Shown here: positions 1,454-30,436 of the stretch, piece by piece
Numbering within the stretch: the stretch's first letter is position 1
Layout of the letters: every line of letters begins with the position of its first letter
DNA from: Escherichia coli
GTDB lineage: Bacteria > Pseudomonadota > Gammaproteobacteria > Enterobacterales > Enterobacteriaceae
Assembly: GCF_041248615.1 (NCBI RefSeq)
Contig: NZ_CP158426.1
Direction: 5' to 3' (one strand)
Length of the DNA: 64,000 bases
The notes under the pieces: model-generated
The model's database searches: none
What the model was told of the DNA's origin: nothing
Seen by the model: only the letters and a program-made list of their open reading frames with translations
Program-made: the position numbers and the translations under genes

Positions 1454-1495
1454 TTAGATTTGACTGAAATCGTACAGTAAAAAGCGTACAATAAA

Positions 1496-1522
1496 GGCTC
1501 CACGAAAGTGGGGCCTTTTTTA
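1496..1522 (+). terminator. intrinsic terminator after pflB
   Basis: GC stem AGGCTCCAC/GTGGGGCCT followed by T-run, just after pflB stop. Confidence 0.5.
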
Positions 1523-1644
1523 GCACGAGAGCCTTTTTTGTCAGCTATCTATACTTTAAGGTGACTGCCAAAACAGACTCGACGTAGCCTTCGAGCTGCG
1601 CACCAACACGGCCTCAGATGGGCCACATCTGGAGAAACACCGCA

Positions 1645-2385: not shown

Positions 2386-2395
2386 TTTCCCCGTA

Positions 2396-2428
2396 AAGCG
2401 GCAACTTTTTTGAGTTGCCGCTTTTTTA
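2396..2428 (+). terminator. intrinsic terminator after pflA
   Basis: stem AGCGGCAACT/AGTTGCCGCT with flanking T-runs. Confidence 0.55.
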
Positions 2429-2594
2429 TTCCGCGCTGCATAAATAATTCAGAGCTCTATTTCTAACGCCCTTACAGCACAGCTTCCAAATGTATTACCC
2501 AAACCGCCAGTATATGTCCTGCGGCTTGCGCGCATTTCTCGATTATGTAAAAACGGGTCAGATCTGCCAGAGTCAGCGTCACCGGCCACAATAA

Positions 2595-4025: not shown

Positions 4026-4234
4026 AGACAAATCCTTCGCCAAAATTAAAGGGGCATCTGTAAAACGAGGGATTATGCGCGGCAAATAAGAAGTGCGGAA
4101 ATAGCGAAATGCAAAATTATAACCTGCTGCACATTTTATTTTTAAACGAATAAAATTTGGAATAAAGCAAGTCAGATAGAAGAAACAAAAAAGCAGAGTG
4201 TGAAACAGTAAGTTCACACTCTGCTTGAATTCAT

Positions 4235-5383: not shown

Positions 5384-5697
5384 GAATTAAAACCGTGAGG
5401 AAGTTCAAATTTCATGCGCATCATGCCACCGCCAAAAACATTGTCAATGGGTGAAAATACGCGCATATCGCAGCTGAGGTATTATCGATTTATATTACTC
5501 ATTCATAACGCTAATGCTGGAGAGACGATTAATCTCATCTGATTGTTTTTAATGATCTAACACAAATTTCATACGCTTCGTTCAGTCGAAAAATTTCATG
5601 GTCACAGCAAACTCATATTTCCCGTCTATGCTTTCAGGGCAATGCATCGCGTCTGACCGATTTCAGACGTACCACTGACTCTCGAAAGGAGAAGAGG

Positions 5698-6324
5698 ATG
5701 ACCAAACCGTATGTTCGTCTTGATAAAAATGATGCTGCCGTTTTGCTTGTTGATCACCAGGCTGGTTTACTTTCCCTTGTACGGGATATCGAACCCGATA
5801 AGTTTAAAAATAACGTGCTGGCGCTGGGCGACCTGGCTAAGTATTTCAACTTACCTACTATTCTTACCACCAGTTTTGAAACCGGTCCTAACGGCCCATT
5901 AGTTCCAGAACTGAAAGCACAGTTTCCCGATGCACCTTACATTGCTCGCCCGGGAAATATTAACGCCTGGGATAACGAAGATTTTGTAAAAGCTGTCAAA
6001 GCGACAGGTAAAAAACAGTTAATTATTGCCGGTGTGGTAACCGAAGTTTGCGTGGCATTCCCGGCGCTTTCAGCCATTGAAGAAGGGTTTGACGTCTTTG
6101 TCGTGACTGACGCGTCAGGGACCTTTAATGAAATTACCCGGCATTCGGCGTGGGATCGCATGTCGCAAGCTGGTGCGCAATTGATGACATGGTTCGGCGT
6201 GGCTTGCGAGCTGCATCGCGACTGGCGTAATGATATTGAAGGACTGGCGACGTTGTTCTCTAACCATATTCCTGATTATCGTAATTTGATGACCAGTTAT
6301 GACACGTTAACGAAGCAGAAATAA
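5698..6324 (+). CDS. ycaC: isochorismatase-family hydrolase
   Basis: 208-aa ORF with RBS GGAGAAGAGG; conserved neighbour of dmsC. Confidence 0.85.
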   Translation: MTKPYVRLDKNDAAVLLVDHQAGLLSLVRDIEPDKFKNNVLALGDLAKYFNLPTILTTSFETGPNGPLVPELKAQFPDAPYIARPGNINAWDNEDFVKAVKATGKKQLIIAGVVTEVCVAFPALSAIEEGFDVFVVTDASGTFNEITRHSAWDRMSQAGAQLMTWFGVACELHRDWRNDIEGLATLFSNHIPDYRNLMTSYDTLTKQK

Positions 6325-6358
6325 AAGAGAACCGGGGCCGAAACCCCGGTTGTTATGA

Positions 6359-7222
6359 TTAGCTTGCGACGGCCATCCCCACGGTCATATGCAAACCATA
6401 GAATACGCCACGACCGATTAATTCCCCTGCCAGAAGCAGAATGAATGATACGGAAAGTAGCGGAACCGCAGGCTGATAACCTTTTAGCTGTGGTGCAATC
6501 CACAAGCACAGGGCAACAGCCAAAAGCACGATCCGCCAGGACATCAGCGCACCATAGTCCGGCACCAGCGCTGCGGCCTGCTGCACAGAACTATGAATAG
6601 TCGCCAGCTCTGCGCCCTGCATCACTGACATCACGCCACTCACTACCAGTGCCAGTACAGAAATGGCTGGCAGCAGACGCATCGCCCAGCCATCGACGCC
6701 AGCCAGACTCAGCAACAGGTAACCCAGTAACGGGCCGCCCATAAACATCGTCAGGAAGAAGCCCATCGGCGTCCAGATGCTGTACCAGGTCGGAACGGTA
6801 TCAATGCTGTTATACACACGCACCATCATCCAGACAAAGATGACGCCAAGAACCATCGTCACTATCAGCCACAGCGTACGCAATGCCGGTGACAGCTTTT
6901 TCAGCATTGCCAGCAACCAGCCGATGCCACCAACAGCAAAAAAGATCGAACCGCTGGCGATTTCGTTACTGAGTGCTGAAGCCCCTACCCGGTTGAGCGA
7001 GTTAAAGGCGCGCATCGGTGAACCAAGATGAAGCATAGAGGCGATAAAGCCAATGCCCATCAGCACCCATAAACCAAACATGCAGGCAATAACACGCTGC
7101 TGGGCTTCTGCTCGCAGGTCGCCTTTGAGCAGCGCCAAAGCCAGAACGATAAAACCACCCGCTACACATTGCCCGAAGACCGTGAAGATCATCAGCGGCC
7201 ATTCATGCCATCCACTTCCCAT
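6359..7222 (-). CDS. dmsC: DMSO reductase membrane anchor subunit
   Basis: 287 aa from MGSGWHEWPLMIF; polytopic; immediately downstream of dmsB. Confidence 0.9.
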   Translation of the reverse strand: MGSGWHEWPLMIFTVFGQCVAGGFIVLALALLKGDLRAEAQQRVIACMFGLWVLMGIGFIASMLHLGSPMRAFNSLNRVGASALSNEIASGSIFFAVGGIGWLLAMLKKLSPALRTLWLIVTMVLGVIFVWMMVRVYNSIDTVPTWYSIWTPMGFFLTMFMGGPLLGYLLLSLAGVDGWAMRLLPAISVLALVVSGVMSVMQGAELATIHSSVQQAAALVPDYGALMSWRIVLLAVALCLWIAPQLKGYQPAVPLLSVSFILLLAGELIGRGVFYGLHMTVGMAVAS

Positions 7223-7223
7223 C

Positions 7224-7841
7224 TCACACCTCCTTCGGGTTTGCCAGATAGCCAGTGGTATCCCCGGTCGGGCGGCTGTTGGCATTGGGTTTGATCACAA
7301 TATTCGGTTTGGTAAAGTGAGCTCGCGGCAACGGCGCAACGGCCGCCAGATCGCCATGTTTTTTACGCAGCTCGTCGATAGGGCCGAAATCCAGCGCCCG
7401 CAGCGGGCAAGATTCAACACAGATCGGCTTTTTCCCCTCCGCAACACGGTCATAACAACCATCGCATTTGGTCATATGGCCTTTCGTTTCGTTATATTGC
7501 GGTGCGCCATACGGGCAAGCCATATGGCAGTAGCGGCAGCCAATGCACACATCTTCATCGACTACAACAAAACCATCTTCACGTTTATGCATCGCACCAC
7601 TCGGGCAGACTTTAGTACAAGCCGGATCTTCGCAGTGGTTACATGAAATCGACAGATAGTAGGCAAACACGTTCTGATGCCAGACACCGTTATCTTCCTG
7701 CCAGTCACCGCCAGCATATTCATAAATGCGGCGGAAGCTGACTTCCGGCGTCAGATCTTTATAGTCTTTACAGGCCAGCTCGCAGGTTTTGCAACCGGTG
7801 CAACGGCTGGAATCAATAAAAAATCCATACTGGGTTGTCAT
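7224..7841 (-). CDS. dmsB: DMSO reductase iron-sulfur subunit
   Basis: 205 aa with four ferredoxin-type Cys clusters (CxxCxxCxxxCP). Confidence 0.95.
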   Translation of the reverse strand: MTTQYGFFIDSSRCTGCKTCELACKDYKDLTPEVSFRRIYEYAGGDWQEDNGVWHQNVFAYYLSISCNHCEDPACTKVCPSGAMHKREDGFVVVDEDVCIGCRYCHMACPYGAPQYNETKGHMTKCDGCYDRVAEGKKPICVESCPLRALDFGPIDELRKKHGDLAAVAPLPRAHFTKPNIVIKPNANSRPTGDTTGYLANPKEV

Positions 7842-7851
7842 CGGTTACTCC

Positions 7852-10296
7852 TTACACCTTTTCAACCTGAACAAGGTTTGTATGTGACGGATTCCCCTTA
7901 GCGAGAGGAGACGGACGTTGAGTGGTCAGTACGTTGATACAACCGCCCTTATCGACACGTTTTGCATCCGGGTCATACCAGGCACCTTCACCCAGTGCGA
8001 CCACACCCGGCATCATTCGTGGCGTCACTTTCGCCTCAATATGAACCTCACCACGATCGTTAAAGATCCTGACTTTATCGCCGTTGTTGATACCGCGTTT
8101 TTGTGCATCAAGCGGGTTGATCCACATTTCCTGACGGCAAGCTGCTTTCAGCACATCAACGTTGCCGTAAGTTGAGTGAACGCGAGATTTGTAGTGGAAG
8201 CCAGTAAGCTGCAGCGGATATTGTTTGTTCAGCGGATCCTGATAACTTTCAAAGCCCGGCGTATAGATCGGCAGTGGATCGATCACATCGCCTTCTGGCA
8301 ATTCCCAGGTCGCGGCAATGTCAGCCAGCGCCTGCGAATAAATCTCAATTTTACCCGATGGCGTGGTCAGTGGATTTGCCTGAGGATCTTCACGGAAAGC
8401 TTTATAAGCAACGTGGTGCCCTTGTGGGTCGCGCTTTTTAAAGATCCCCTGCTTGCGGAACTCTTCAAACGTTGGCAGTTCAGGAATCGCTTCCCGCGAC
8501 TGGGCATACAGATGCCGCATCCACTCTTCCTGTGTACGGCCTTCAGTAAACTGTTGCTCAACGCCAAGACGTTTTGCCAGTTCGCTGGTCATTTCATAGA
8601 TGGTCTTACATTCAAAGCGCGGTTTAATCACCTGATCGTTGAAAATCACGTAAGACATATTCCCGCAGGATGCATCCAGTGCAAAGTCCATCTGTTCGGA
8701 AGCGGTGCAGTCAGGCAGCAGGATGTCAGCATATTTCGCTGATGAGGTCATGTGGCAGTCGATAACCACAATCAGCTCGCACTTCTTATCATCCTGAAGG
8801 ATTTCATGGGTACGGTTGATTTCAGAATGCTGGTTAATCAGGCAGTTACCGGCATAGTTCCAGATCATTTTGATCGGCACATCCAGCTTATCTTTCCCGC
8901 GCACACCATCACGCAGCGCTGTCATTTCCGGGCCACGTTCAATGGCATCGGTCCACATAAACATCGAAATGCTGGTCTGGATCGGGTTTTCGAGGGTCGG
9001 CATACGGACAAACGGTAAGCTGTATGAACCTTCACGCGCGCCGCTGTTCCCCCCGTTAATACCAACGTTACCGGTCAGAATCGCCAGCATCGAGATAGCA
9101 CGGGTTGCGATTTCACCGTTAGCGTGACGCTGCGGGCCCCATCCCTGGCTGATAAACGCCGGTTTGGTACTGCCGATTTCACGAGCCAGTTTGATGATTT
9201 TGTCTGCCGGAACACCGGTGATTTGCGAGGCCCATTCCGGCGTTTTAGCCACGCCATCTGGCCCTTCACCCAGAATATAAGCTTTATAGTGACCATTTTT
9301 CGGCGCACTGGCTGGCAGTGTTTTCTCGTCGTAGCCAACGCAATATTTATCGAGGAATGCCTGATCCACCAGGTTTTCGGTGATCATGACATACGCCAGA
9401 CCGTTAACCAGTGCGGCATCTGTTCCCGGACGAATGGGGATCCACTCATCTTCGCGCCCGGCTCCGGTGTCGGTATAGCGCGGATCGATGATGATCATGC
9501 GAGCATTAGATTTCTGACGCGCCTGTTCAAGATAGTAAGTCACCCCACCGCCACTCATTCGCGTTTCGCCAGGGTTATTACCAAACAGCACTACCAGTTT
9601 ACTGTTTTCGATATCCGACGGGCTGTTACCATCTGCCCAGCCGCCGTAGGTATAGTTCAAACCTTCCGCAATTTGCGCGGAAGAGTAGTCACCGTAATGG
9701 TTCAGATAACCGCCGCAGCAGTTCATCAGGCGAGCGACCAGGGTATTTCCCGGCGGCCAGGAGCGGGTCATGGTGCCGCCCAGCGTACCGGTGCCATAGT
9801 TCAGATAGATAGACTCGTTGCCGTACTCTTTGATCAGGCGCTGCATATTGGTCGCGATGATGTCGTAGGCTTCTTCCCAGCTAATGCGCTCGAATTTGCC
9901 TTCACCGCGCGCCCCGACTCGTTTCATCGGATATTTCAGGCGGTCCGGATTGTAGACACGGCGACGCATGGAACGCCCACGCAGACAGGCGCGCACCTGG
10001 TGCAGGCCGTCATAGTTGTCATCGCCGGTATTATCCGTTTCAACATATTTAATTTCACCGTCCACAACGTGCATACGTAGCGGGCAGCGACTACCACAGT
10101 TAACTGTACAGGCGCTCCAGATAACCTTTTCGTCTGATTTTGTTGGAATGGCGCTATCGACAGCGTGCGCAATCCGACTAAAAGGTAATGTTAATGCGCT
10201 GCTGGCCATTGCCAGGCCGCCGATCGCTGTCGTTTTTACCAAACCACGGCGACTCACCTCAGCAGCCAATACCGCATCAGGGATTTTCGTTTTCAT
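7852..10296 (-). CDS. dmsA: DMSO reductase catalytic molybdopterin subunit
   Basis: 814 aa; N-terminal Tat signal (SRRGLVKTTAIGGLAMA); molybdopterin oxidoreductase architecture. Confidence 0.95.
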   Translation of the reverse strand: MKTKIPDAVLAAEVSRRGLVKTTAIGGLAMASSALTLPFSRIAHAVDSAIPTKSDEKVIWSACTVNCGSRCPLRMHVVDGEIKYVETDNTGDDNYDGLHQVRACLRGRSMRRRVYNPDRLKYPMKRVGARGEGKFERISWEEAYDIIATNMQRLIKEYGNESIYLNYGTGTLGGTMTRSWPPGNTLVARLMNCCGGYLNHYGDYSSAQIAEGLNYTYGGWADGNSPSDIENSKLVVLFGNNPGETRMSGGGVTYYLEQARQKSNARMIIIDPRYTDTGAGREDEWIPIRPGTDAALVNGLAYVMITENLVDQAFLDKYCVGYDEKTLPASAPKNGHYKAYILGEGPDGVAKTPEWASQITGVPADKIIKLAREIGSTKPAFISQGWGPQRHANGEIATRAISMLAILTGNVGINGGNSGAREGSYSLPFVRMPTLENPIQTSISMFMWTDAIERGPEMTALRDGVRGKDKLDVPIKMIWNYAGNCLINQHSEINRTHEILQDDKKCELIVVIDCHMTSSAKYADILLPDCTASEQMDFALDASCGNMSYVIFNDQVIKPRFECKTIYEMTSELAKRLGVEQQFTEGRTQEEWMRHLYAQSREAIPELPTFEEFRKQGIFKKRDPQGHHVAYKAFREDPQANPLTTPSGKIEIYSQALADIAATWELPEGDVIDPLPIYTPGFESYQDPLNKQYPLQLTGFHYKSRVHSTYGNVDVLKAACRQEMWINPLDAQKRGINNGDKVRIFNDRGEVHIEAKVTPRMMPGVVALGEGAWYDPDAKRVDKGGCINVLTTQRPSPLAKGNPSHTNLVQVEKV

Positions 10297-10466
10297 AATG
10301 GCTCACTCAAGCTTGCTCACGATTGATTCCAGTAACAAACCGTATTGTGTAATTATTTCTATAGCAGTTCGCTATATAGGCTTGTATACATCGAATAATT
10401 TGAAAATCAAAGAGATAGGTAGATTTTCACTCGAAAGTAGTATTACGTGTAAGTGAGGAGTAATTA

Positions 10467-10480
10467 TTGTTCGGTATCAA
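10467..10480 (-). promoter_or_regulatory. FNR-type site (TTGAT-N4-ATCAA class) in dmsA promoter region
   Basis: reverse complement reads TTGATACCGAACAA, about 170 bp upstream of dmsA ATG. Confidence 0.45.
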
Positions 10481-10491
10481 AGGGAGACAAA

Positions 10492-10506
10492 AAAAGCGCC
10501 CGCAGG
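10492..10506. repeat. attL core (direct repeat AAAAGCGCCCGCAGG)
   Basis: identical 15-mer at 50468-50482; GGTACTTA at 10516-10523 mirrors TAAGTACC at 50456-50463. Confidence 0.55.
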
Positions 10507-10592
10507 AGATTTAACGGTACTTACTCCTCTTGCTGATTTCCTTATTTTTCAATAAGTAAACAAAAACAAGGGGAGCAAATTATCACAAATAA

Positions 10593-11588
10593 TTACTGGT
10601 CGATGGACAGTTTATGGACACTTTCAGCCAGCGGATTAAAGCTGATCGCATCCTGTAAAAAGTCCGGTGAAAAATGCGCATACGTCATCGTTTGCTGAAT
10701 CGTGGCGTGACCCAGGATCCTCTGCAACGTGACGATGTTCCCGCCGTTCATCATGAAATGCGTGGCGAACGTGTGCCGCATGACATGCGTGGCCTGCCCT
10801 TTGGGTAAGTCGGGCTTCACCTCCTGAAGGATCTCCCTGAAACTGAGATAATCAACCTGATATAACAGGCCGGTCCGGCGGGTTTTAATTAACGGCACAA
10901 CGGAATCAGCTACAGGAACCGAGCGCGATTTCCCGTTCTTTGTGTTAAAGAACGTCACCCTGTTACCCACGATGTGTTCCCCGCGAAGCGTTGACGCCTC
11001 TTTCCATCTGGCCCCGGTCGAAAGGCACAGAATGGCAATGCGTCGTGCATCACCCTCAAGCCGTTTCAGAAGGCGATCAATCTCGTCATCTGAAAGAAAG
11101 GCCATTTCTGTATTCTGAACCTTGAGTTTACGTATTCCGCGCACAGGGTTTTCGTTATGATAAACCTCCGCGTCAATTAACAACGAAAACATCGCAGATA
11201 AGGCGCACAGGTCGCGATTGATACTGGACGGCATCAGTCCCGCCTGCAACTTATCCGAGCGATACTCAATCACGAATTTTCGTGTCATCTGGCTGGCGCG
11301 CGGGTCCCCCATTTCACGTATCACCTTCTCCAGTCTGGTTCTGTAGGTATCACCATATGCCTGATTACGACCATCAAGCATCCACCACACCTCAATCAGT
11401 TCTGATAACCGCCGTTGATCGGCGGGCCTTGCCTGCCACGGGTTATTGTGGAAATTCTGAAGAACGTATCTTTCGAATTCCTGCGCCTTTGATTTCAGGG
11501 TGAAAATCTTACGAATCCGCCTTCCTCCCGCCCCCTGAGGCCTTACATCAACCTGATAACGTCCGTCTTTGAGTTGCTTAATCGACAT
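10593..11588 (-). CDS. int: P2-type tyrosine integrase
   Basis: 331 aa from ATG with SD GGAGGTG; N-terminus MSIKQLKDGRYQVDVRP and C-terminal HxLRHxFAT...Y catalytic region; resemblance to P2 Int is from memory. Confidence 0.9.
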   Translation of the reverse strand: MSIKQLKDGRYQVDVRPQGAGGRRIRKIFTLKSKAQEFERYVLQNFHNNPWQARPADQRRLSELIEVWWMLDGRNQAYGDTYRTRLEKVIREMGDPRASQMTRKFVIEYRSDKLQAGLMPSSINRDLCALSAMFSLLIDAEVYHNENPVRGIRKLKVQNTEMAFLSDDEIDRLLKRLEGDARRIAILCLSTGARWKEASTLRGEHIVGNRVTFFNTKNGKSRSVPVADSVVPLIKTRRTGLLYQVDYLSFREILQEVKPDLPKGQATHVMRHTFATHFMMNGGNIVTLQRILGHATIQQTMTYAHFSPDFLQDAISFNPLAESVHKLSIDQ

Positions 11589-11657
11589 GATCAGCACCTC
11601 CGACGGATAAACCTGTTAACCCCTGCTTACTGAACGCCGCCCGTTCAATATACAGCG

Positions 11658-11999
11658 TCAGCCAGCATTGCGGCCTGATTGGGGTGATTTTTGGGTATTG
11701 CGGGTTGAAACCTGATCGTCCTCCGACTGCGTGGAGCCATCAAGAGAGAGAGCCGGGGCGATCTGACCGGCAACAGGTAGCGTCTTATCTTTGATTAGCC
11801 AGAACATATATTTTTCAAACCGATCCACTTGAAGGACGGCCTCAACAATCTTTGCTCTGGCGATCTTTTGCCCTGACTCATAATTCCTGACAGTTGCCAG
11901 AGATAACCCTGTAATATCAGCAAATTGCTTTTGAGTTAGCCCTTCCGTCTTGCGTATCAAACGCAACTTTTTCGCATAGTCTATTGACAAGATACTCAT
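11658..11999 (-). CDS. P2 C-type immunity repressor (HTH)
   Basis: 113 aa; HTH near N-terminus; C-terminal GQIAPAL motif recalled from P2 C; divergent from cox-like gene. Confidence 0.8.
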   Translation of the reverse strand: MSILSIDYAKKLRLIRKTEGLTQKQFADITGLSLATVRNYESGQKIARAKIVEAVLQVDRFEKYMFWLIKDKTLPVAGQIAPALSLDGSTQSEDDQVSTRNTQKSPQSGRNAG

Positions 12000-12048
12000 T
12001 TGGGGATTAATCTCCTACAAAAGATAACCGTACGATTATCTTTACAAG

Positions 12049-16979: not shown

Positions 16980-19490
16980 ATGAGCCATCACCACACGCAC
17001 CTGGCGTACCCGTGGAACGCCCCGCTGCCGGTTATTGATCCTGAGACATTCGGCAGAGCATTACCGCAGAAGCCAACCGCATTACAACGGGCAATCCGTG
17101 ACTACCTCACCGAAGACATTCGCACTGAGGCCCGGCTGGATGAAGAAACCGTGGCCTTCCTGACAACCACGGACAAAGGTAAGCAAATTAATTCACACCT
17201 TCACCGGGACGAAGAGCGGCAGATAAGGCTGGATAAGCTGGCACGACACAGACGCGAAAATCCGCCAACGGCGGTATCGGAGGCGATAGCCGAACTTCGC
17301 ACCCTGCCCTCGTTTCTTGCCAGTGTGTTGATCCGTGATCTGGCACGACTGAACCGGAAACAGCAAAGTGCCCGCAGTGAAGGTGTAAAAAACAACAGCG
17401 CATACGTGGCCGATAATTTCGTTCGCCGTGGACTGCGTGCGCGCCTGAAACGTATTGAAAGGGTTAACGACCGCTTTGCAACGCCGGCATTCAAAACCAC
17501 CGTCGTGCGCCATCGCCTTGAAGAACTGCTCACACTGCCGCAACTCACCCGTGACGAAATCCAGCGCATCGCCACACTGACAGCCCAGGCATTCGCCGCA
17601 GAATTTGAACGCATATGTGATGAAGTTCTTGAACGGACAGGCAAGGATAATGACAGCCCGGTTATCTGGCTGCTGGCCTACCAGAAGGTGGCACGCACAG
17701 CCTTAATTCTGGGCATGGTCCCGCCATACTGGCCGGAACTCGAAATCAGGCACAACCGACGCACACCGCCGGACCCTGAACGGGTTCCGGGTGCGGTACT
17801 GCGCATCACCTGCGCGACCTGGTGGAACAACCAGTTACGCCACGTCGCCGATCTCTGGCGGGAGGAGTTACTGCGCGCCGCCGGCAGAGTGTCACGTAAA
17901 CAATCCCCCTATATCAGCCATGAGTCACTACTGGAGTTCCGCGAGAAGCGCCAGCGCACCTGTGACTTTCTCAAAAGCTGGGATATTGAAAACGAAGACG
18001 GCGAGCGCCTGAGTCTGGAGGACGTGTACTGGGCTGGCCTGGGTAATCCACGCAACCGCCGCAATGAAATGATGGTCTGCGTCAGAGGGATGGAGATGGT
18101 GGCCGAATTACGGGCTGACGTCGCATTCTTCATCACAGTAACCACCCCTTCCCGCTTTCACAGCGTGAACGAGAACGGCAGCCTGAACCCGAAATACAAC
18201 GGTGCCACAGTACGAGATGCCAGTGATTATCTGGTTTACGACTTCTTCGCAGCCGTAAGAAAAAAAATAAAAAAAGAGGGGCTGGGCTGGTACGGCGTGC
18301 GAACCGCTGAGCCACACCATGACGGCACGCCACACTGGCATATGCTGGTATTCACTTCCCCGGAGAACGCAGAGCGCATCATCGAAATTATGCGCGAAGC
18401 AGCAATTAAATCAGATCGCCACGAACTGGGGGACGATATTTCACCGCGCTTTAAATGCGAGAAGATAGACCCGGAAAAAGGCACACCGGCAAGCTATATC
18501 GCAACCTATATCGGTAAGAACCTGGACGCCAGCGCTTTCCACAACAATGATCCGAAAACCGGAAAACCTTACGTTGATGAGGAATCCGGGAAAACCATGG
18601 CGGAAACCGTGGAGAACGCCATTGCCTGGGCAAGCCTTCACCGCATCCGTCAGTTCCAGTTTTTCGGCATTCCGCCCCGCCAGGTATGGCGTGAACTCCG
18701 CCGCCTTGCAAGCCAGATGGAGCGCAACCCGGCATCACCGAAGCACCTCGATCATGACGATATTGACGCCATTATGGCTGCCGCAGATGTGGGATGTTTT
18801 GCCACCTACATCATGAAACAGGGTGGTGTGCTCATTCCGCGCAACCAGTATCTGGTCCGCACCGCATACGAAACCGCAGACGAAGCCAACGACTACGGTG
18901 AATTCCCTCAACGTATCTACGGAATCTGCGCCCCGTCGCTCGGAGAGCGGTACACCATATGCACCCATCCGGACGAGTGGAAACTGGTTAAAAAAGAAAC
19001 AACACCAGACAACCGCACGGGCGAGGGTTTTGACCTTCATGGCGACCCCGTCGCCCCTTGGACTCGTGGCAATAACTGTCCCCGGGATGAAAAAACAGAC
19101 AATCACGGACCAGAAAACAGGCAGGACCCCGGACGACTGACGCTTCCCGAAGAGAACCTGGAAAGCTGGCTGAATACGTTAAGCAGGGGCGATCGGAGAA
19201 AACTGCGTAATCAGATTAAAAATCAGCCGTCGGGCGCAAAAACCGGACAAAACGACACCACACCGGCATCTGACACCCCTGTAAGGGTGGGGATTGTCGT
19301 GCCTGCGGATACCGCGACGGACACGCAAATCGCCCGCGAACTTGATGCGCTGGGTGTGCAGTTGCCTGACGCGGCCATCATCTCCGTGCGTAACGGTGCC
19401 CGTGTGCGTCTGGATAACGGGGGAACAGCGTACTGGGATGAGTCAGCCCGTCACATCATCACAGAGCAGCCAGTGGAGGCGGGAGCATGA
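16980..19490 (+). CDS. rolling-circle replication initiator (P2 gpA-like)
   Basis: 836 aa; HUH-type motif HHDGTPHWHMLVF; size and position match P2 gene A. Confidence 0.9.
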   Translation: MSHHHTHLAYPWNAPLPVIDPETFGRALPQKPTALQRAIRDYLTEDIRTEARLDEETVAFLTTTDKGKQINSHLHRDEERQIRLDKLARHRRENPPTAVSEAIAELRTLPSFLASVLIRDLARLNRKQQSARSEGVKNNSAYVADNFVRRGLRARLKRIERVNDRFATPAFKTTVVRHRLEELLTLPQLTRDEIQRIATLTAQAFAAEFERICDEVLERTGKDNDSPVIWLLAYQKVARTALILGMVPPYWPELEIRHNRRTPPDPERVPGAVLRITCATWWNNQLRHVADLWREELLRAAGRVSRKQSPYISHESLLEFREKRQRTCDFLKSWDIENEDGERLSLEDVYWAGLGNPRNRRNEMMVCVRGMEMVAELRADVAFFITVTTPSRFHSVNENGSLNPKYNGATVRDASDYLVYDFFAAVRKKIKKEGLGWYGVRTAEPHHDGTPHWHMLVFTSPENAERIIEIMREAAIKSDRHELGDDISPRFKCEKIDPEKGTPASYIATYIGKNLDASAFHNNDPKTGKPYVDEESGKTMAETVENAIAWASLHRIRQFQFFGIPPRQVWRELRRLASQMERNPASPKHLDHDDIDAIMAAADVGCFATYIMKQGGVLIPRNQYLVRTAYETADEANDYGEFPQRIYGICAPSLGERYTICTHPDEWKLVKKETTPDNRTGEGFDLHGDPVAPWTRGNNCPRDEKTDNHGPENRQDPGRLTLPEENLESWLNTLSRGDRRKLRNQIKNQPSGAKTGQNDTTPASDTPVRVGIVVPADTATDTQIARELDALGVQLPDAAIISVRNGARVRLDNGGTAYWDESARHIITEQPVEAGA

Positions 19491-20436: not shown

Positions 20437-20646
20437 ATGGCTATTGCCGCAAGTTACACCATGCATCTCTATTGTGATTGTCGCCAGTGTACAAATGGTA
20501 AATATCAAACGCCAGACTTCGGTGAATATATCGGTACGTCATGGACTGGCTGTGCAAAAGAGGCGCGTAAGGATGGCTGGCGAATAAGCAAAGACAAAAC
20601 TCGTGCTTTTGCGCCCGGGCATAAAGTTTTGAGGATTAACAAATGA
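20437..20646 (+). CDS. small Cys-rich protein, cargo operon gene 2
   Basis: 69 aa; SD AAGGAG; CDCRQC plus later Cys; 1-nt gap to gene 1. Confidence 0.55.
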   Translation: MAIAASYTMHLYCDCRQCTNGKYQTPDFGEYIGTSWTGCAKEARKDGWRISKDKTRAFAPGHKVLRINK

Positions 20647-21044
20647 CCACTATAACCAAAGAGCGACTACTGACAATCAGGCAGTGGCGCGAAACATACG
20701 GACCTGGTAGCAACGTTGTACTGCCAGCCGAAGAAGCGGAAAAACTGGCACGGATTGCTTTGGCATCGCTGGAAGCAAAACCAATAGGTGCTTTCCACAT
20801 TGCAGAACAGCAGGTCGATGGCACAAGTGACTACATCAAGGATGGGGAGTACCGCTTGCTGACATCTGAAGAACAAAAGATAGCCCAACTTTTAGGCGAT
20901 GCATGGAACCTGTATTTTACATTGCCAGTTGAGCATCCAATGGGTAGAGATGAATTTTGCCGGGCAATTCATCATTGCCAAAATATGGTGTTGGCACGCC
21001 CTGCCATCAGGGCGCTGGCCAGTAAGGGGCAAGGCTATAAATAG
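20643..21044 (+). CDS. hypothetical protein, cargo operon gene 3
   Basis: 133 aa; ATGA overlap with gene 2; followed by intrinsic terminator. Confidence 0.6.
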   Translation: MTTITKERLLTIRQWRETYGPGSNVVLPAEEAEKLARIALASLEAKPIGAFHIAEQQVDGTSDYIKDGEYRLLTSEEQKIAQLLGDAWNLYFTLPVEHPMGRDEFCRAIHHCQNMVLARPAIRALASKGQGYK

Positions 21045-21050
21045 ATGAGC

Positions 21051-21078
21051 AAAACGCCCTCCTCCAGGGCGTTTATTT
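21051..21078 (+). terminator. intrinsic terminator ending the 3-gene cargo operon
   Basis: stem AACGCCCT/AGGGCGTT, loop CCTCC, then T-rich tract. Confidence 0.5.
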
Positions 21079-21081
21079 CAA

Positions 21082-21108
21082 TGCACAATAGTGCACAAAT
21101 TTGCACAA
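21082..21108. promoter_or_regulatory. three TGCACAA direct repeats at 10-bp phase
   Basis: TGCACAA at 21082, 21092, 21102, one helical turn apart. Confidence 0.4.
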
Positions 21109-21534
21109 TTTTTTTGAACGACTTTTTGCCCTTCCGGCCCGTGTGGCGTCTGGATCCGTCGGGGATCCGTGCGTGCACGAAAAAAGGCCTTTTTCTGCGC
21201 GCAGGTGACGGGGGAACAGCCCGCGTTTCAGGGGGTAAATAGCATTCCCTGAACGATGTTGCAGCGACACAACAGAATGGCTGTATTTCTCACGCTGAGC
21301 GTAAAAAAGACGTAAAAGCTTGATTTGATGGGGGTGAAAGATAAGGCCGTCAAAATCGCACTGAGGCAGCGAGAATATGTCGTCAGAGTTGCGGGGTTGC
21401 GTAAGCATCCGCCCGGCGATGATGGCTACAAGGTTGGAGATGTTGTGAAATTATCTGAAGGAATAACCAGCTTGCAGGAGAACCCGGGCAAAGTCAGAAT
21501 AGCGGCAGGCATCAACTCAAAAGAGGATAATGTC

Positions 21535-21636
21535 ATGAGCCACTTTAATGATTTATGCCAGATCAATCGTGAAGCTGAAGAAAAACGCGCTGAGGCAGCT
21601 CAAATTTTGCGGGATGAAGCGGCAAGGCTGATTGAT
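21535..21636 (+). pseudogene. 5' part of cargo ORF interrupted by the IS21-family element
   Basis: ORF with SD AGAGGA runs into the IS left end; reading frame resumes in-frame at 24224; alternative start 21325. Confidence 0.6.
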
Positions 21637-21829
21637 TGCGTATTTTCATGAAAGGAGATCACTCAATAACTTCCATCGAGATCGGGTAATAACATTTGAA
21701 CAGATCGCTGAATAACATCGATGGAGATCACTTTTGACTCATTTTGTTATTCAGTGATCTCCATCAATGTTATTGGAACTTCACAGGTGTGTTGATCTGT
21801 ATCTTTTGCCATTCCGGTAAAGGATACCT

Positions 21830-23371
21830 ATGCCAACAGTTCCAATTTCTATGAGAAAACTTAAAGAAATTCTTAGGCTTAAATACGGTGTTGGACTCAG
21901 CCATCGACAAATTGGTCGTAGTCTTGCAATCTCCCCTTCCGTTGTATCCAGATATGCTAATCGGGCGGCTCAACTTGGCATAAAGCAGTGGCCCTTACCT
22001 ACAGGATGGGATGATACAAAACTAAAACATGCGTTCCTTCAGACCCAGGTTAAGATGAAGAAGCACTCTCTGCCTGACTGGGCTACAGTACACCGGGAAC
22101 TGCGTAATAAATGCGTGACGCTGCAGCTACTCTGGGAAGAATACTGTGAGCGTAATCCAGGCGGTTTTTACAGCTATAACCATTACTGCCGGATGTACCG
22201 TGAATGGCTCAAAACCACTTCACCATCAATGCGTCAGGTACATAAAGCTGGCGAAAAACTTTTCGTTGATTACTGTGGACCTACCGTTGGCGTTACCGAC
22301 CCTGAGACCGGAGAAATAAGAACTGCTCAGGTCATCGTAGCTGTTCTCGGGGCATCAAGTTACACATGGGCAGAGGCCACCTGGTCTCAGCAGCTTGAAG
22401 ACTGGGTGATGAGTCATGTTCGCTGCTTCCAGTGGTTGGGTGGCGTTCCTGAACTTGTTGTTCCGGACAATCTGAAAAGCGCCACATCCAGGGCATGTAA
22501 GTATGATCCTGACGTTAACCCTACCTACCAGCAGATGCTTGAGCATTATAATGTCGCAGTTTTGCCTGCGCGGCCACGTAAACCGAAAGATAAAGCCAAA
22601 GCTGAAGTTGGCGTTCAGGTTGTTGAACGCTGGATCATGGCCCGAATCAGGCATGAGATCTTCTACAGCCTTGCATCGCTTAATCAGCGCATTCGGGAGT
22701 TGCTGGAAAGACTGAATAACAAAATAATGCAGAAGTTGGGTTATTCACGTGCAGAACTCTTCATCCAGCTTGATAAACCCGCACTGAAGCCTCTTCCTGA
22801 AGCCAGTTACAGTTACACCCTGGTGAAGAAAGTCAGAGTTCATGCCGATTACCACGTGGAAATCGACAAACATTACTACTCGGTTCCATGTTCGCTGTTA
22901 GGCCAGCAACTGGAAGCATGGATCTCCGGAGAACTGGTAAGACTCTTCAATCAGGGGCAGGAGGTTGCTGTGCACCCGCGCAAGCGTACTTATGGCTACA
23001 GTACCCGCAACGAGCACATGCCTGAAGCTCATCGACAGCATGCCACCTGGACGCCAGAGCGTCTTCTGGAATGGGCGGGGCACATAGGCAGTGAAACTCA
23101 TAGTTATGTGCTTCATATACTGAACTCTCGTCCACATCCGGAACAAAGCTATCGCTTCTGCCTTGGACTCCTGAACCTTCATAAAAAATACAGTAAAGCC
23201 AGACTTAATGCAGCATGTGCAAGAGCTCTGAAAACAAAGGTATGGCGTCTGTCAGGTATTAAATCGATCCTGGAAAAAGGTCTGGATAAACAACCTGTTC
23301 AGGATCCAAAACCAGATCTGTTATCCACGATGGAACACGAAAACGTACGCGGCAGTGAGTATTACCACTGA
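21830..23371 (+). CDS. istA: IS21-family transposase IstA
   Basis: 513 aa; N-terminal HTH; DDE-type integrase core; followed by istB. Confidence 0.9.
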   Translation: MPTVPISMRKLKEILRLKYGVGLSHRQIGRSLAISPSVVSRYANRAAQLGIKQWPLPTGWDDTKLKHAFLQTQVKMKKHSLPDWATVHRELRNKCVTLQLLWEEYCERNPGGFYSYNHYCRMYREWLKTTSPSMRQVHKAGEKLFVDYCGPTVGVTDPETGEIRTAQVIVAVLGASSYTWAEATWSQQLEDWVMSHVRCFQWLGGVPELVVPDNLKSATSRACKYDPDVNPTYQQMLEHYNVAVLPARPRKPKDKAKAEVGVQVVERWIMARIRHEIFYSLASLNQRIRELLERLNNKIMQKLGYSRAELFIQLDKPALKPLPEASYSYTLVKKVRVHADYHVEIDKHYYSVPCSLLGQQLEAWISGELVRLFNQGQEVAVHPRKRTYGYSTRNEHMPEAHRQHATWTPERLLEWAGHIGSETHSYVLHILNSRPHPEQSYRFCLGLLNLHKKYSKARLNAACARALKTKVWRLSGIKSILEKGLDKQPVQDPKPDLLSTMEHENVRGSEYYH

Positions 23372-23382
23372 TACGGGATCCA

Positions 23383-24132
23383 ATGATGAATCATCTTTAC
23401 GAACAACTGACCGCACTTAAACTCACCGGCTTCCGTGATGCGCTTAAAAAGCAACTTGCTCAGCCGGGCACATACCAGGAGCTGGGCTTCGAAGAACGCC
23501 TGTCATTACTGACAGCAGAAGAACTAACCTGCCGTGAAAACAGGAAGGCAGAGCGTCTGATCAAACATGCACGGTTCAGACTTAATGCTGAGTTATCAAA
23601 GCTGGATTATCGTAACAATAGAGGGCTGGACAGGGCCCTCATCCGTTCACTCAGTCAGGGAAACTGGTTAACCCTGAAACAAAATATTTTACTGACCGGG
23701 GCCACCGGCAGCGGTAAAACGTTCCTGGCATGTGCACTTGGTCATAATGCCTGCCGACAGGGATACAAGGTCTACTATTATCGCCTTAAAGCGCTGATGG
23801 AACAGTGCTATCAGGGGCATGCTGATGGAAGATACAGCAAACTTTTGACCAGGCTGAATAATAGCGATCTGCTGCTTCTGGATGACTGGGGGCTGGAACC
23901 TCTCTCATCAGAACAGCGTAGCGACCTGCTGGAAATAGTGGATCTGATGTACCAACGAGGCTCAATCATCGTAGTGAGCCAGTTGCCGGTGGAAAACTGG
24001 TACAAAATGATCGGAGACTCCACACATGCGGATGCCATCCTAGATCGACTGGTTCATGGCAGTATCAAGATCGAACTTAAAGGAGAATCAATGCGGAAAA
24101 TACAATCTCCGTTGACCGAAGGAGATCAGTGA
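23383..24132 (+). CDS. istB: IS21-family ATP-binding helper IstB
   Basis: 249 aa; Walker A GATGSGKT. Confidence 0.9.
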   Translation: MMNHLYEQLTALKLTGFRDALKKQLAQPGTYQELGFEERLSLLTAEELTCRENRKAERLIKHARFRLNAELSKLDYRNNRGLDRALIRSLSQGNWLTLKQNILLTGATGSGKTFLACALGHNACRQGYKVYYYRLKALMEQCYQGHADGRYSKLLTRLNNSDLLLLDDWGLEPLSSEQRSDLLEIVDLMYQRGSIIVVSQLPVENWYKMIGDSTHADAILDRLVHGSIKIELKGESMRKIQSPLTEGDQ

Positions 24133-24223
24133 AGGTAATTTAAAAACGGTTCTGTGAAAGTGACACGAACCGATCTCCATCGATGTTACTCACCGATCTC
24201 CTTCACGGTAATACGCAATTGAT

Positions 24224-24625
24224 TTCTATGAAGAATGGCTGGGGCTTCCATCCATGTACTGGGAAGACGATGATGGCGACCTGCACCGCTACGTGGAGAC
24301 AGGCTTGCCATGTAAGACAGCGGCGGATTTTAGTCCTCTTTCAGTCCACAATATCGCATCTGCACCAGACAATATTTTCCGCATGGCCGTGCGAACCTGG
24401 GTTAAGTCATCTGACAGCAGCTACCCGGTAAGCGTGGTTATTGCACTTGAATTATATTCAGTAGATGCGGAACGGGTGTCTCTGAGAGTCCGGGTGGAAG
24501 ACGATATTTCTGTTCGCGTATTTATCAATAAACCCAGCGAAGAAGCCTGGGGCGATGTTGTTATGCACATGAAAAAGCACATCGCTAATCACCTGAAAAA
24601 GCGAGCGCCATCAGCACTTCGTTAA
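24224..24625 (+). pseudogene. 3' part of cargo ORF interrupted by the IS21-family element
   Basis: in-frame continuation of 21535-21636 once IS and one ATTGAT copy are removed; ends 66 bp before gpQ stop. Confidence 0.6.
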
Positions 24626-24691: not shown

Positions 24692-25747
24692 TCAGGATAT
24701 GGGCTGGGTGTCTAACAGTGCGTAAGGGTTAAAACGGATCACCTCTTCGCCCAGCCAGTCGTTGACGTGTTTCATTGCTTCCATGACGGGCATCAGTTCG
24801 TTAATGGCAAACACACGGGCTGCCTTCTCCACATCCCCGAATGACCCCTTCTCACCCGGCATGGCCCCCATCAGCTGCGGCGGTACACGGTGCACGGACA
24901 GCACATCATCACGCGATGCAGCCTTGACGTTCATGAACTCATCCTTTGCGGTGATTTGCTGAAACGGCAAAATCTGTACGCCATCCTTACCACCTCCCGC
25001 CGCGTGGATGAGCAGATTTTTAAACGCCCCGCCACCACGCGCGCTTTGCAGTGTTTCCCGCAGTTTTTCCATGCTTTCACGGTCAACCTGCGCCGCACCG
25101 ATGTAGACAATACAGCCCGCGTGTGAGCCGTTATCGTAGTAGAGCTTGCGGAAGATATCGGCGGAATGTGACAGGCTGGCAGACAGCAGGCCGCCCAGGT
25201 AATCCGGCATCCCGTAAATCTCCTGGTTGATATCAGGATTCATCAGGTGGCATATCGTCCCCTCACGAAAGCGGTACTCTTCCTGTCCTTCCTGTATATA
25301 CCACCATGATTTCATATCGCTGCCACGTCGCATGTATTTCGCCAGCGCCCGGCGCAGGGCCAGCGGTTCGCCAAGCATGTTGCGCCGCAGCTCAAGACAG
25401 GCATTACCGAACACAAACCAGTCCATCGCCACCCCGGCGAACTCCTGGCGGGACAGCAGAGGATGTGGAATATAGCAGCCCAGCAGCACATTACGTTTGA
25501 AGCTGAGCGCCGACTGGTGCCAGGACGTCTGGCGGGCAGCCCGTGCCAGTCCGTACCAGTCAACGGGCGTTTCAAACCACCGCCCGTTGTCGGCGCAGTA
25601 CATGCTGTCCAGCAGGTCGGCCCCTGACAGCCGGTAAGGTCCTTCAAACGTGAAGGCACTCAGTGTCGGGTCGCTTCGCAGGGAATCCGCAAGGCTGCCC
25701 TGCGCTGCGCGGGCGTTCGTACGTCGTTGTTTATTTTTTCTGCTCAT
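24692..25747 (-). CDS. portal protein (P2 gpQ-like)
   Basis: 351 aa; start overlaps terminase stop; position next to gpP. Confidence 0.85.
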   Translation of the reverse strand: MSRKNKQRRTNARAAQGSLADSLRSDPTLSAFTFEGPYRLSGADLLDSMYCADNGRWFETPVDWYGLARAARQTSWHQSALSFKRNVLLGCYIPHPLLSRQEFAGVAMDWFVFGNACLELRRNMLGEPLALRRALAKYMRRGSDMKSWWYIQEGQEEYRFREGTICHLMNPDINQEIYGMPDYLGGLLSASLSHSADIFRKLYYDNGSHAGCIVYIGAAQVDRESMEKLRETLQSARGGGAFKNLLIHAAGGGKDGVQILPFQQITAKDEFMNVKAASRDDVLSVHRVPPQLMGAMPGEKGSFGDVEKAARVFAINELMPVMEAMKHVNDWLGEEVIRFNPYALLDTQPIS

Positions 25748-27498
25748 CAGAACTCCGTAACACTGAAGGGGGCGGCATCATGTTCACCGCCGACAGGTTC
25801 GTTGATAACGGCCAGCATGGTGGCCCATGCAAGATCGCCATGGCTTACGCCTCTTGCGCGATCTGTTTCGTAGGTGATAAATCCGGCCTGCGTTTTTGTT
25901 TTGCGTACCGCGTTAAAGGCGCTCACCAGTTCGCGCTCGCTGCGGTCGTACTCCCACCGCCCGGCGCGCATGAGCTGCAGCATCTTCAGAACCAGCGTGC
26001 GCTTTGATGACAGGGTGAAGGTGTAGGGAATGGCTGCCGGAAAAAAGCGCTTCACAATCTGATACACCGCATCCCCGTGACCGCCGGTTACGTCAATACC
26101 GATATGCTCAACGTTATAGCGAAAGGTGAACTCTTCAATCACCTTCGCCTGCGCCTCAAACTCCAGCCCCTGCACCCGCCGCGTCTCCACGGTGCGAAAA
26201 CGCCCGCCCGGTACGGCTGGCGGCACCACCACGACAACCGCCCCGCTGTCACCGTTCCCGCTACTGCCGTTGGCGTCGTACCCAATCCACACAGGGCGGT
26301 TCCCCATCGGACGCGGTGCAAACGGCTTCCAGTCCGGCCACTCGTCGTATCCGTCAACACCGCAGCCAATCAGGATATTCAGGTTAAATGCCGATTCCCC
26401 TTCGCGAGCAAATTCACACATGTAGAGATTGCGGAACTCGTCTTCAGTGTTATTGCGCCGGATTTTGTCAATGTTGGTTAACGTCCATCCCTGACTGACC
26501 ACATCTTCCAGCGTCACAATTTGCCGCCAGATATAGTCAGGACAGATAAGGCCGTTATGAAGCGCATTCCAGCTCACATCAAAATGCTGACGTTTATGAG
26601 TACGAAGCCCTTCATTCCAGTGATCGCCGTTCCAGTATGCATACGCCTCATGTGTTTCACTTGATGGCGTGGAAAAATAGGTACACCGCAAACCATCCAG
26701 CGTTGCCATAGCAGCAGCCACCTTGCGCAGCTCTGCGAAACGCCCCGTCCAGAAAAACTCATCAAAATACAGATTCCCTGTGTACGCTTGCGCGGTGGCC
26801 GCAGAAGTGCCGAGAAAATGCAGCTCTGCACCGTTGGAGAGGATGACTTTATCGCCCCCTTTCAGTTCCACATCAACTTCAGATGCAGCCTTCTGAATAA
26901 TGCTTTTAAACTGGAGCGCCTGACGACGAGACGCAGACAAAAAAATCTGGTTACGCTGGTAAGGTTGTGCCACATCGTCACGCAGCGCCATCAGCAGCGC
27001 TTCCTGCGCAAAATACCAGGTCGCCCCAATCTGGCGGGATTTCAGGATCATCCTGTCAGTAATTCCGGCACGCTCACAGGCACCGATAGCATCAAGCCAT
27101 TTGCGCTGGTGTCCGGCCAGCCTGTCGGTAATTTTTTCCCGCAGCGCCGCGATCTGTTCCGGCGTGAAATGATTTTTGTGTTTTTTCGCCCGGCCTTTCT
27201 TTCCTGTTGCCGTCTCATCCGGCAGACCGTCATGCAGCTTTTTAAGCTGACGGGTCAGCAAATCAATTTCCTTAAAGTCCCCGCCTGTTTTATTCTGTTT
27301 TTCCGTGAGCTGAATGAGTCGCGCATCCATGGACTGCGTGACACGCTGAACCGGGGGCGTCTCATCCCACTGGTCGCGTTTTTTCCACGAATGGATCGTG
27401 TTCTGGTTGATACCCATAAGGCGGGAAATTTCCGCAACAGGGTAACCCTGCCAGTACAGCTGGCGTGCCCGCTGGCGAACAAATGTATCCTGAATCAT
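25747..27498 (-). CDS. terminase large (ATPase) subunit (P2 gpP-like)
   Basis: 583 aa; divergent from gpO across a late promoter region. Confidence 0.85.
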   Translation of the reverse strand: MIQDTFVRQRARQLYWQGYPVAEISRLMGINQNTIHSWKKRDQWDETPPVQRVTQSMDARLIQLTEKQNKTGGDFKEIDLLTRQLKKLHDGLPDETATGKKGRAKKHKNHFTPEQIAALREKITDRLAGHQRKWLDAIGACERAGITDRMILKSRQIGATWYFAQEALLMALRDDVAQPYQRNQIFLSASRRQALQFKSIIQKAASEVDVELKGGDKVILSNGAELHFLGTSAATAQAYTGNLYFDEFFWTGRFAELRKVAAAMATLDGLRCTYFSTPSSETHEAYAYWNGDHWNEGLRTHKRQHFDVSWNALHNGLICPDYIWRQIVTLEDVVSQGWTLTNIDKIRRNNTEDEFRNLYMCEFAREGESAFNLNILIGCGVDGYDEWPDWKPFAPRPMGNRPVWIGYDANGSSGNGDSGAVVVVVPPAVPGGRFRTVETRRVQGLEFEAQAKVIEEFTFRYNVEHIGIDVTGGHGDAVYQIVKRFFPAAIPYTFTLSSKRTLVLKMLQLMRAGRWEYDRSERELVSAFNAVRKTKTQAGFITYETDRARGVSHGDLAWATMLAVINEPVGGEHDAAPFSVTEF

Positions 27499-29659: not shown

Positions 29660-30436
29660 ATGCTGACACCGGCACAGGCTCATTTCCAGCACGTGATGGC
29701 TTTACGGGCAGGAACGGCAGCAGAAAACGAGGATATCGTGGCCCGCACGGCTCATGAGCAGGTCCTTCACCGTCTGCGCCTGGCACAGCAACGCATAAAG
29801 GGCGTCCAGGCAAAAGCGGCAAAGGCCGCGCTCAAGCGTGAAATGCTGCCGGGTTTTGCAGGCTGGATAGACGGCACGCTGGAAGCCGACGGCGGACAGC
29901 AGGATGAGGTGATAGCCACACTCATGGTGTGGGCCGTGGACTGTGGCGACCTGGCGCTTGCACTGCGCATCGGGGATTATGTGGTTCGCCACAACCTCAC
30001 GATGCCTGACAACTTCGGGCGTACGGCAGCCACGGTACTGACCGAGGAAATCTGCAACCCTGTTCTGACACAGGCCGGAACGGATGCACACGCCGATTTG
30101 TCCGGCTACATCGAACCGCTGGACACCCTCTGGCAAATTGTCGCGAACCGGGACATGCCCGATGAGGTCCGCGCCAAGCTGTGCAAGGCATGCGCCTTTG
30201 CCCGTCGTGGCCTGACCGATGCCGACAGCATGGCGGTGAGTCTGAAGCTGTTCCGTGAGGCAATGCACCTTAACCCGAATGCGGGGGTAAAACGTGAGAT
30301 TGCCACGCTTTCACGGGCCCTGAAAAAGGCCGGACAGGATGAAGCCGCTGCCGCACAGGAGCCTGCGGCACAGAAAGATACAACCAGAGAACAGACCACG
30401 ACGCCGAAGGCGAAAGCGAAGGCGAAACGTGGTTAA
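29660..30436 (+). CDS. terminase small/endonuclease subunit (P2 gpM-like)
   Basis: 258 aa; conserved DMPDEVRAKL region recalled from P2 M. Confidence 0.85.
   Translation: MLTPAQAHFQHVMALRAGTAAENEDIVARTAHEQVLHRLRLAQQRIKGVQAKAAKAALKREMLPGFAGWIDGTLEADGGQQDEVIATLMVWAVDCGDLALALRIGDYVVRHNLTMPDNFGRTAATVLTEEICNPVLTQAGTDAHADLSGYIEPLDTLWQIVANRDMPDEVRAKLCKACAFARRGLTDADSMAVSLKLFREAMHLNPNAGVKREIATLSRALKKAGQDEAAAAQEPAAQKDTTREQTTTPKAKAKAKRG

Follow-up and report, generated by a model that had tools for sequence, protein, structure and literature searches.

A phased TGCACAA array as the probable distal part of the cos packaging site in a P88-like, P2-family prophage of Escherichia coli

What are three direct copies of TGCACAA, spaced one helical turn apart between the cargo genes and the portal gene of an E. 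coli prophage, there to do? The copies lie on the + strand at 21082–21088, 21092–21098 and 21102–21108 of the window (the whole stretch of DNA that was analysed, 64,000 nucleotides), with start-to-start distances of exactly 10 bp; the positions and phase given in an initial annotation are thus correct. That annotation took the copies for an operator or an iteron-type binding array and not a product of chance. We conclude that they most probably serve as a recognition array, distal and helically phased, in the cos packaging site of a P88-like, P2-family prophage; sites of this kind are known, and the array is a variant particular to its lineage.

The window is E. coli chromosomal DNA into which, beside dmsA, a P88-like (Xuanwuvirus, P2-family) prophage has inserted. 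Reading along the prophage (gene positions are those of the RefSeq annotation of an identical prophage, compared with the maps of P2 and 186), we see that the gene order starts with integrase, repressor, cox and the gpA replication endonuclease (16980–19490), and continues with small unannotated ORFs. After these cargo ORFs come a terminator, the repeats, ~250 bp of non-coding DNA and an ORF split by an insertion sequence; then follow the portal gene Q (24692–25747, − strand), the gene for the large terminase subunit (TerL) gpP (25747–27498, − strand), scaffold, capsid and gpM (29660–30436). In the annotation of P2 and 186, the interval from the gpA-side genes to Q contains the cohesive-end site cos, and the position of the array between the gpA-side cargo and portal Q matches this P2-family location. 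The closest named phages, P88 and other members of Xuanwuvirus, are 88–93% identical to the window across the intergenic region. Variable and defence cargo is known to occupy the DNA that adjoins cos on both sides (PMC9122126; PMC5694545). The array is bordered as follows:

21052–21081, + strand: intrinsic terminator, stem 21052–21060/21066–21074, then a T-rich tail
21638–24217: ISEc12 (IS21 family), 2580 bp; splits the ORF, with a 7-bp target duplication, ATTGATT

The repeats had been described as following directly on a cargo terminator and lying upstream of an IS-interrupted ORF, and both descriptions hold: the hairpin at 21052–21074 (RNA fold −13.4 kcal/mol, z = −4.8, with 0/200 shuffles as stable) ends the upstream ORFs, and the ORF that begins at 21328 is split by ISEc12. 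The cargo ORFs after gpA, which are variable, end at this terminator, and the conserved cos block has its left limit there. The split ORF, of 236 aa in two parts (21328–21637 and 24225–24625), occupies the second (cos–Q) cargo slot and is intact in strain SCU-115; a Pfam scan of this ORF and of four of the upstream cargo ORFs found no families. RefSeq lists 20643–20777 as a truncated pseudogene; a 133-aa ORF is open here through 21044, ending just before the terminator, and a Pfam search with it gave no match. Several public records also have small ‘hypothetical protein’ ORFs called across cos, both in the window (21045–21242, + strand; 21073–21408, − strand) and elsewhere (locus L004, 3130–3273; locus L006, 2402–2674); the pattern of boxes, phased words and inter-lineage indels in the sequence indicates that such calls are spurious.

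TGCACAA is under-represented in the window, with 6 copies on both strands of the 64 kb where dinucleotide-preserving shuffles give 16.1 ± 4.3; half of the six fall within 27 bp. The triple pattern TGCACAANNNTGCACAANNNTGCACAA, allowing up to 3 mismatches, has 1 match in the window and 0 in 100 shuffles.

Relatives were fetched blind to the repeats, using an exact 19-mer located 100 bp downstream of them as a query against IMG/VR; the 120 loci obtained gave 92 distinct sequences once near-identical copies of the window prophage had been dropped. The exact triple is present in 62/92 of these, rising to 90/92 when single-base variants count, although with an exact 19-mer query and a database rich in close relatives the statistics rest on ~10 independent lineages. 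The carriers’ portal proteins are 64–100% identical to that of the window, so that several genera are sampled; a Novemvirus from Enterobacter has the array within flanks only 75% identical. Similar DNA occurs in 1139 E. coli records, and many of the alignments listed start at 21082 (query base 43), the first base of the first repeat. At exactly this base column conservation jumps from ~40% to at least 90%, with homology breaking down upstream. Across 10 lineage representatives, whose inter-repeat cores are less than 85% similar, conservation averages 0.83, 0.96 and 0.99 for the first, second and third repeat, as compared with 0.47 for the upstream DNA, 0.57 for spacer 1 and 0.77 for spacer 2. 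That the heptamers are better conserved than the spacers points to selection that acts on the words and on their phase and not on the entire segment. The earlier idea of a protein-binding array as opposed to chance thus gains support from conservation seen without reference to the repeats, from the heptamer–spacer difference and from the fixed phase.

The remaining 2/92 relatives are a deletion variant (L070, ~5470–5610, and L082), in which the second repeat is fused to a fourth repeat (TGCACAATAGTGCACAAAAAACGCGC), the deletion having removed the third repeat together with the inner cos boxes. The packaging module in these two differs from that of the window: identity is only 30% for the portal and only 35% for TerL, and the helix-turn-helix (HTH) at the N terminus of TerL is of a third type; this looks like a hybrid, probably defective prophage that arose by recombination between repeats.

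Working from the array towards the portal gene, we distinguish the following elements:

21082–21088, + strand: repeat R1, TGCACAA; outermost site of the array, −122 from the start of the putative cohesive end
21092–21098, + strand: repeat R2, TGCACAA; −112 from the same point
21102–21108, + strand: repeat R3, TGCACAA; −102 from the same point; the most invariant copy
21109–21117, + strand: T7-GA run directly after R3; at least 90% column conservation
21128–21148, + strand: conserved boxes GCCCTTCCGGCCC (21128–21140) and TGGCG (21144–21148); 80–99% column conservation
21152–21168, + strand: variable palindromic segment GGATCC-gtcgg-GGATCC; 50–80% column conservation, other lineages differ
21174–21180, + strand: fourth repeat R4, degenerate TGCACGA; 72 bp after R3 and 30 bp before the putative cohesive end
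21179–21202, + strand: palindrome GAAAAAAGGCCTTTTTC, then a conserved TGCGCGC; the palindrome centre varies between lineages
21204–21222, + strand: putative cosN GGTGACGGGGGAACAGCCC; the region’s best match to the P2 cohesive end GGCGAGGCGGGGAAAGCAC
21223–21246, + strand: conserved left-end side of cosN; homology shared with satellites stops here

R4 had been overlooked in the initial annotation. It reads TGCACAA followed by a run of A in 88% of the relatives, and its distance from R3 is 72 bp in 88/88 P88-type sequences (of the 92 distinct) in which both can be located; R1 is found at its modal position in 69–76% of distinct relatives. The T7-GA run, which may be intrinsically bent or easily deformed, is invariant in a five-way alignment of the window, P88, a satellite, the Novemvirus and another prophage. 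Folded as RNA, the palindrome at 21179–21202 gives no significant hairpin (z = −1.0).

The cleavage site (cosN) most plausibly lies at 21204–21222, an assignment made by sequence comparison. Here GGTGACGGGGGAACAGCCC and the P2 end GGCGAGGCGGGGAAAGCAC are identical at 13/19 positions without gaps; 20 such matches occur among the 128,000 positions of the window, and ~0.09 would be expected in a region of this size. The same segment ranks among the two best-conserved blocks of the five-way alignment, which was built without an anchor, its spacing to R3 and R4 agrees with that in P2, and it starts GGTGA..G.GGG like the mapped end of phiRSA1, GGTGAGGCGGGG (PMC5694545). Scanning with the phiRSA1 cohesive end as published gave no match, probably because the printed 18-mer is incomplete. 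Other candidates for cosN were GGCG at 21145, the 19 nt before TGCGCGC, and GCCCTTCCGGCCC; we prefer 21204–21222 on the grounds of the 13/19 match, conservation and spacing. The GGCG at 21145 belongs to the TGGCG box, which P2-type sites have at −57. LR595891, the only linear phage record to break near here, starts 19 bp after R3; we do not count this start as a mapped end, since base 1 of that record was set by comparison with reference genomes.

How does this arrangement compare with the known sites of the family? For P2, 186 and P4, cos has been described as a 55-bp core that contains the 19-nt cohesive ends (Ziermann and Calendar 1990, cited in both PMC9594776 and PMC5694545). With their ends joined, all three genomes have TGCAT words at −123/−124, −111, −101 and −29 from the cut, the counterpart of R4 being TGCATTAAAA at −29. 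A second set of loci, likewise gathered blind to the repeats, comprised 120 loci anchored on the exact P2 cohesive end, or 105 distinct flanks. In this P2-type set TGCA has a background of 2.4% per position, and the word positions compare with those of the P88-type set as follows:

R1 TGCA: P2-type −124 (40% of flanks); P88-type −123 (76%)
R2 TGCA: P2-type −111 (67% of flanks); P88-type −113 (82%)
R3 TGCA: P2-type −101 (74% of flanks); P88-type −103 (89%)
extra TGCA: P2-type only, −35 (71% of flanks); P88-type none
R4 TGCA: P2-type −29 (93% of flanks); P88-type −31 (89%)

When the two types are aligned on R4, R2 falls at −111 and R3 at −101 in both, with the TGGCG box at −57/−59 in both; the R3–R4 distance is again 72 bp in 67/92 P2-type sequences with both words locatable. 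Accessory words at fixed distances from the cut, a feature of cos that derives from this comparison itself, are therefore common to the window (−122, −112, −102, −30 from the putative cut) and to P2-type sites (−124, −111, −101, −29). R1 is present in only 54/86 distinct flanks of P2-type phages, suggesting that not every site need be essential.

On this sequence evidence the array of the window is the positional homologue of the P2-family array, written in a different word. The window and P2/186/P4 cos have in common the same genome position between gpA-side cargo and portal gene Q; three phased TGCA-words ~100–124 bp before the cut, TGGCG near −58 and a fourth word near −30; then a palindrome and a G-rich cohesive end, putative in the window, starting GG(C/T)GA; the 72-bp R3–R4 distance; and sharing between helper and satellite. 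They differ in the word itself (TGCACAA as opposed to TGCAT(G/T)) and in its spacing (a strict 10 + 10 bp as opposed to 13 + 10), in the T7 run that follows R3 in the window, and in the position of TGCGCGC, which lies before and not after the putative cohesive end of the window; moreover, that end is only 13/19 identical to its counterpart and the terminase proteins only 37–46% identical.

Satellites provide a separate view of which sequences matter. P4 relies on the terminase of P2, with which it has only the cos core in common (PMC9122126; PMC9594776), and longer cos flanks raise cosmid transduction by more than 1000-fold (PMC9594776). In four P4-like satellites (L006, L015, L037 and L125) the sole homology to the window is 21082–21246, starting at R1; cos sequence is thus common to helper phages and P4-like satellites. 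Elements that retain no more of their helper than its packaging signal thus retain the array. Similarly, among the satellites of the P2-type set R1, R3 and R4 are retained in 18/18 distinct flanks, and R2 in 17/18.

These four loci belong to a family of ~12 kb with a P88-type cos (L006 corresponds to NZ_CP148349, 2562249–2567414, reverse complement; in L015 the element is at 1–12006). Its genes include a P4-type integrase, an 897-aa toprim primase, a second tyrosine recombinase, an ogr/delta-like zinc-finger gene, a 236-aa unknown protein and a MazF toxin. The family also has its own P2-family major capsid gene (PF05125, E = 1e-71), which is unusual for a P4-type satellite.

If the repeats belong to cos, which protein would read them? 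In phage lambda, cosB comprises the sites R3-I1-R2-R1, which are read by the small terminase subunit gpNu1; it includes a site for IHF, which bends it. By analogy, a host architectural protein (IHF, Fis or similar) might bend the present cos in place of terminase binding: the conserved T7 run and the phasing suggest bending, and the IHF site of lambda cosB would be a precedent. We nevertheless regard this as improbable, if less so than the other alternatives considered below. The word differs between groups of phages that share a host, being TGCAT in P2, 186 and P4 and TGCACAA in the P88 type, and TGCACAA does not, by inspection, fit the IHF consensus WATCAANNNNTTR. That all four sites switch together from TGCAT to TGCACAA among phages of E. 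coli argues for a reader encoded by the phage and not by the host, for which terminase would be the obvious choice. Given the cos position and the homology, the relevant proteins would be the terminase subunits encoded ~4–9 kb downstream and not the neighbouring small cargo proteins. The two candidates are:

25747–27498, − strand: large terminase gpP, N-terminal HTH at residues 6–63; candidate reader of the array
29660–30436, + strand: gpM, annotated as the small terminase subunit; the other candidate reader, or an adaptor

In Pfam, gpP matches PF06056 (Terminase_5, E = 1.3e-26), HTH_23, Terminase_6N and Terminase_6C. Its first 30 residues contain 14 fixed differences between TGCAT-type and TGCACAA-type phages, as compared with 25% of residues protein-wide, an enrichment of group-specific residues in the HTH that is modest and confounded by phylogeny. 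In gpM, which matches PF05944 (E = 4.4e-37) and is 37.5% identical to gpM of P2, the fixed differences between the groups form no cluster. An AlphaFold model of gpM (pLDDT 83; input of 41 sequences from the retrieved loci) predicts a TPR-like repeat made up entirely of helices, ending in a C-terminal tail that is basic and disordered, and no HTH or recognisable DNA-binding fold is apparent in this model. A search of the gpM sequence against the PDB gave no match, and neither did comparison with solved small terminases, the best Foldseek hits being to TPR proteins (E = 0.015). The hybrid prophage L070 is uninformative for the choice between gpM and gpP, as its HTH is of a third type. Taken together, we slightly favour the N-terminal HTH of gpP over gpM as the reader of the word.

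The likeness to lambda cosB is therefore one of principle, in that copies of a short word beside the nicking site would recruit and position terminase. Sequence homology between the two is absent, the lambda sites are not direct repeats at 10-bp phase, and the lambda reader is a winged-helix small subunit, whereas here gpM is predicted to be TPR-like and an HTH was found on the large subunit only. We accordingly do not class the array as a lambda-type cosB; it may, by analogy, work like one.

An operator array, through whose three sites a regulator of phage or cargo origin would control the adjacent genes, is what the initial annotation had put forward, and we now consider this very unlikely. 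Direct repeats one helical turn apart are typical of operators and the array does sit between a terminator and the next ORF, but no sigma-70-like promoter overlaps or adjoins it, the start of that ORF being 220 bp away. Nor does the array follow any particular set of genes: it is kept although the cargo upstream changes between almost all lineages, and although the downstream ORF is missing in P88 and different in satellites. TGCACAA is absent from the repressor–cox control region, and an operator would leave unexplained both the fixed 72-bp distance to R4 and the spacing to the cos boxes.

We attach just as little weight to the notion that the repeats have no function of their own and form merely a conserved edge at which recombination swaps the hotspot cargo. 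Variable cargo does start directly upstream of the array, the deletion variant shows that recombination between the repeats takes place, and cos-adjacent recombination has been proposed by Rousset et al. (PMC9122126). A passive edge, however, would not account for the better conservation of the heptamers over their spacers, the 10-bp phase, the 72-bp distance to R4, or retention of the array in satellites and, with another word, in P2-type phages.

R2 and R3 could also pair, as GTGCA/TGCAC, into a hairpin that is followed by the T run, and a consensus scan flags 21091–21106 plus the T run as terminator-like; a structural RNA or back-up terminator is nonetheless scarcely credible. The hairpin has 5 bp and −6.1 kcal/mol (z = −0.53, with 58/200 shuffles as stable), R1 and R4 lie outside it and yet are conserved, the P2-type array has no T run, and a strong terminator is already present 10 bp upstream. 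Least likely of all are the iterons of a replication origin or partition site, the other proposal of the initial annotation: the phased direct repeats look iteron-like, and the P4 origin is annotated with three tandem 10-bp ‘type 2’ repeats, but in P2 and 186 rolling-circle replication starts, according to their annotations, at a nick within gene A and this prophage has the same gpA, the array is common to helpers and to satellites with a different, primase-type replication protein, and in P4 the homologous TGCAT array lies in the last ~125 bp of the record, beside cos and far from ori/crr. In short, the array resembles the P4 type 2 repeats, and iterons or operators in general, as three direct repeats one helical turn apart, but differs in location and word, has no link to a replication gene or promoter, and is conserved with cos and not with ori.

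The reading as a terminase recognition array of cos is thus the one we retain. What we observe directly for the array is its position, its conservation and phasing, its presence in satellites as well as in phages, and its positional homology to the cos of P2/186/P4; its binding by terminase is what we infer from them. R1–R3 and R4 would enclose the conserved cos boxes, to the right-end side of the putative cut at 21204–21222. In lytic growth, several DNA-binding modules of an oligomeric terminase (gpP plus gpM) would bind R1–R3, which lie on the same face of the helix, and R4; binding would bend or wrap the ~100-bp segment, including the intervening 72 bp and helped by the conserved T7 run, and the bent segment would place the gpP nuclease on cosN. 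DNA with the array, whether of phage or satellite, would thereby be marked for packaging. Packaging in P2 starts from circular monomers. A literature search for the TGCACAA word, a P2-family terminase binding site and the cos of P88 returned nothing usable, and in the searchable literature we found no experiment on a P88-type cos site.

A bolder proposal, which we offer tentatively and as possible but not probable, is that the phased array of TGCA-words, and not the cohesive end, is the packaging specificity code of the P2 family; TGCAT and TGCACAA would then define compatibility groups of helpers and satellites, with the HTH of gpP reading the word and TPR-like gpM serving as an adaptor.

Outside the phages described so far, TGCACAA R1–R3 and R4 are found with a clearly P2-like end (GGCGCGGCGGGGCTACCAC) exactly 29 nt after the start of R4 in two cos-like relics of Arsenophonus (L325, 1941–2100; L265), in a degraded, non-phage context (Band 7/NfeD, RecX, IS630), which we regard as a lead only. 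A cos-like relic in Thiolinea disciformis (L262) has TGCACAA R1–R3 and R4 with another end sequence, near a P4-type integrase. In these Arsenophonus and Thiolinea relics the R3–R4 spacing is 72 or 71 bp. Further afield, a scan of 100,044 species genomes found 10-bp-phased TGCACAA in ~70 loci of unrelated phyla, often in 3–6 copies with variable spacers; among them are Bryobacterales MAGs (L253–L257, L279–L294; ~20 copies in one MAG), Akkermansia/Verrucomicrobia (L303, L314, L323, L324), Alphaproteobacteria (L267, L299, L307, L335) and Bacteroidaceae (L297, L298, L308, L309), as well as others. Their contexts are unlike a P2-type cos, and they may be other protein-binding arrays or dispersed repeats; the word alone is hence not diagnostic of cos.

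For the P2 family, the finding provides a functional label for DNA that annotation leaves blank or fills with spurious small ORFs, and fixes the right border of a defence-gene hotspot to a single base, 21081/21082. We see its interest as moderate, and as lying mainly in helper–satellite specificity and in the engineering of P2/P4 particles. If the array is a docking code for terminase, the type of word would predict which satellites a given helper packages, and would tell engineers of P2/P4 transducing particles which flanks to keep; published cosmids vary by more than 1000-fold in yield with their cos flanks (PMC9594776). Should the specificity-code reading be true, four short words could both predict the helper range of a satellite and allow that range to be re-engineered. 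A further suggestion from the comparison is that in the P2 family the large terminase subunit may be the one that recognises sequence.
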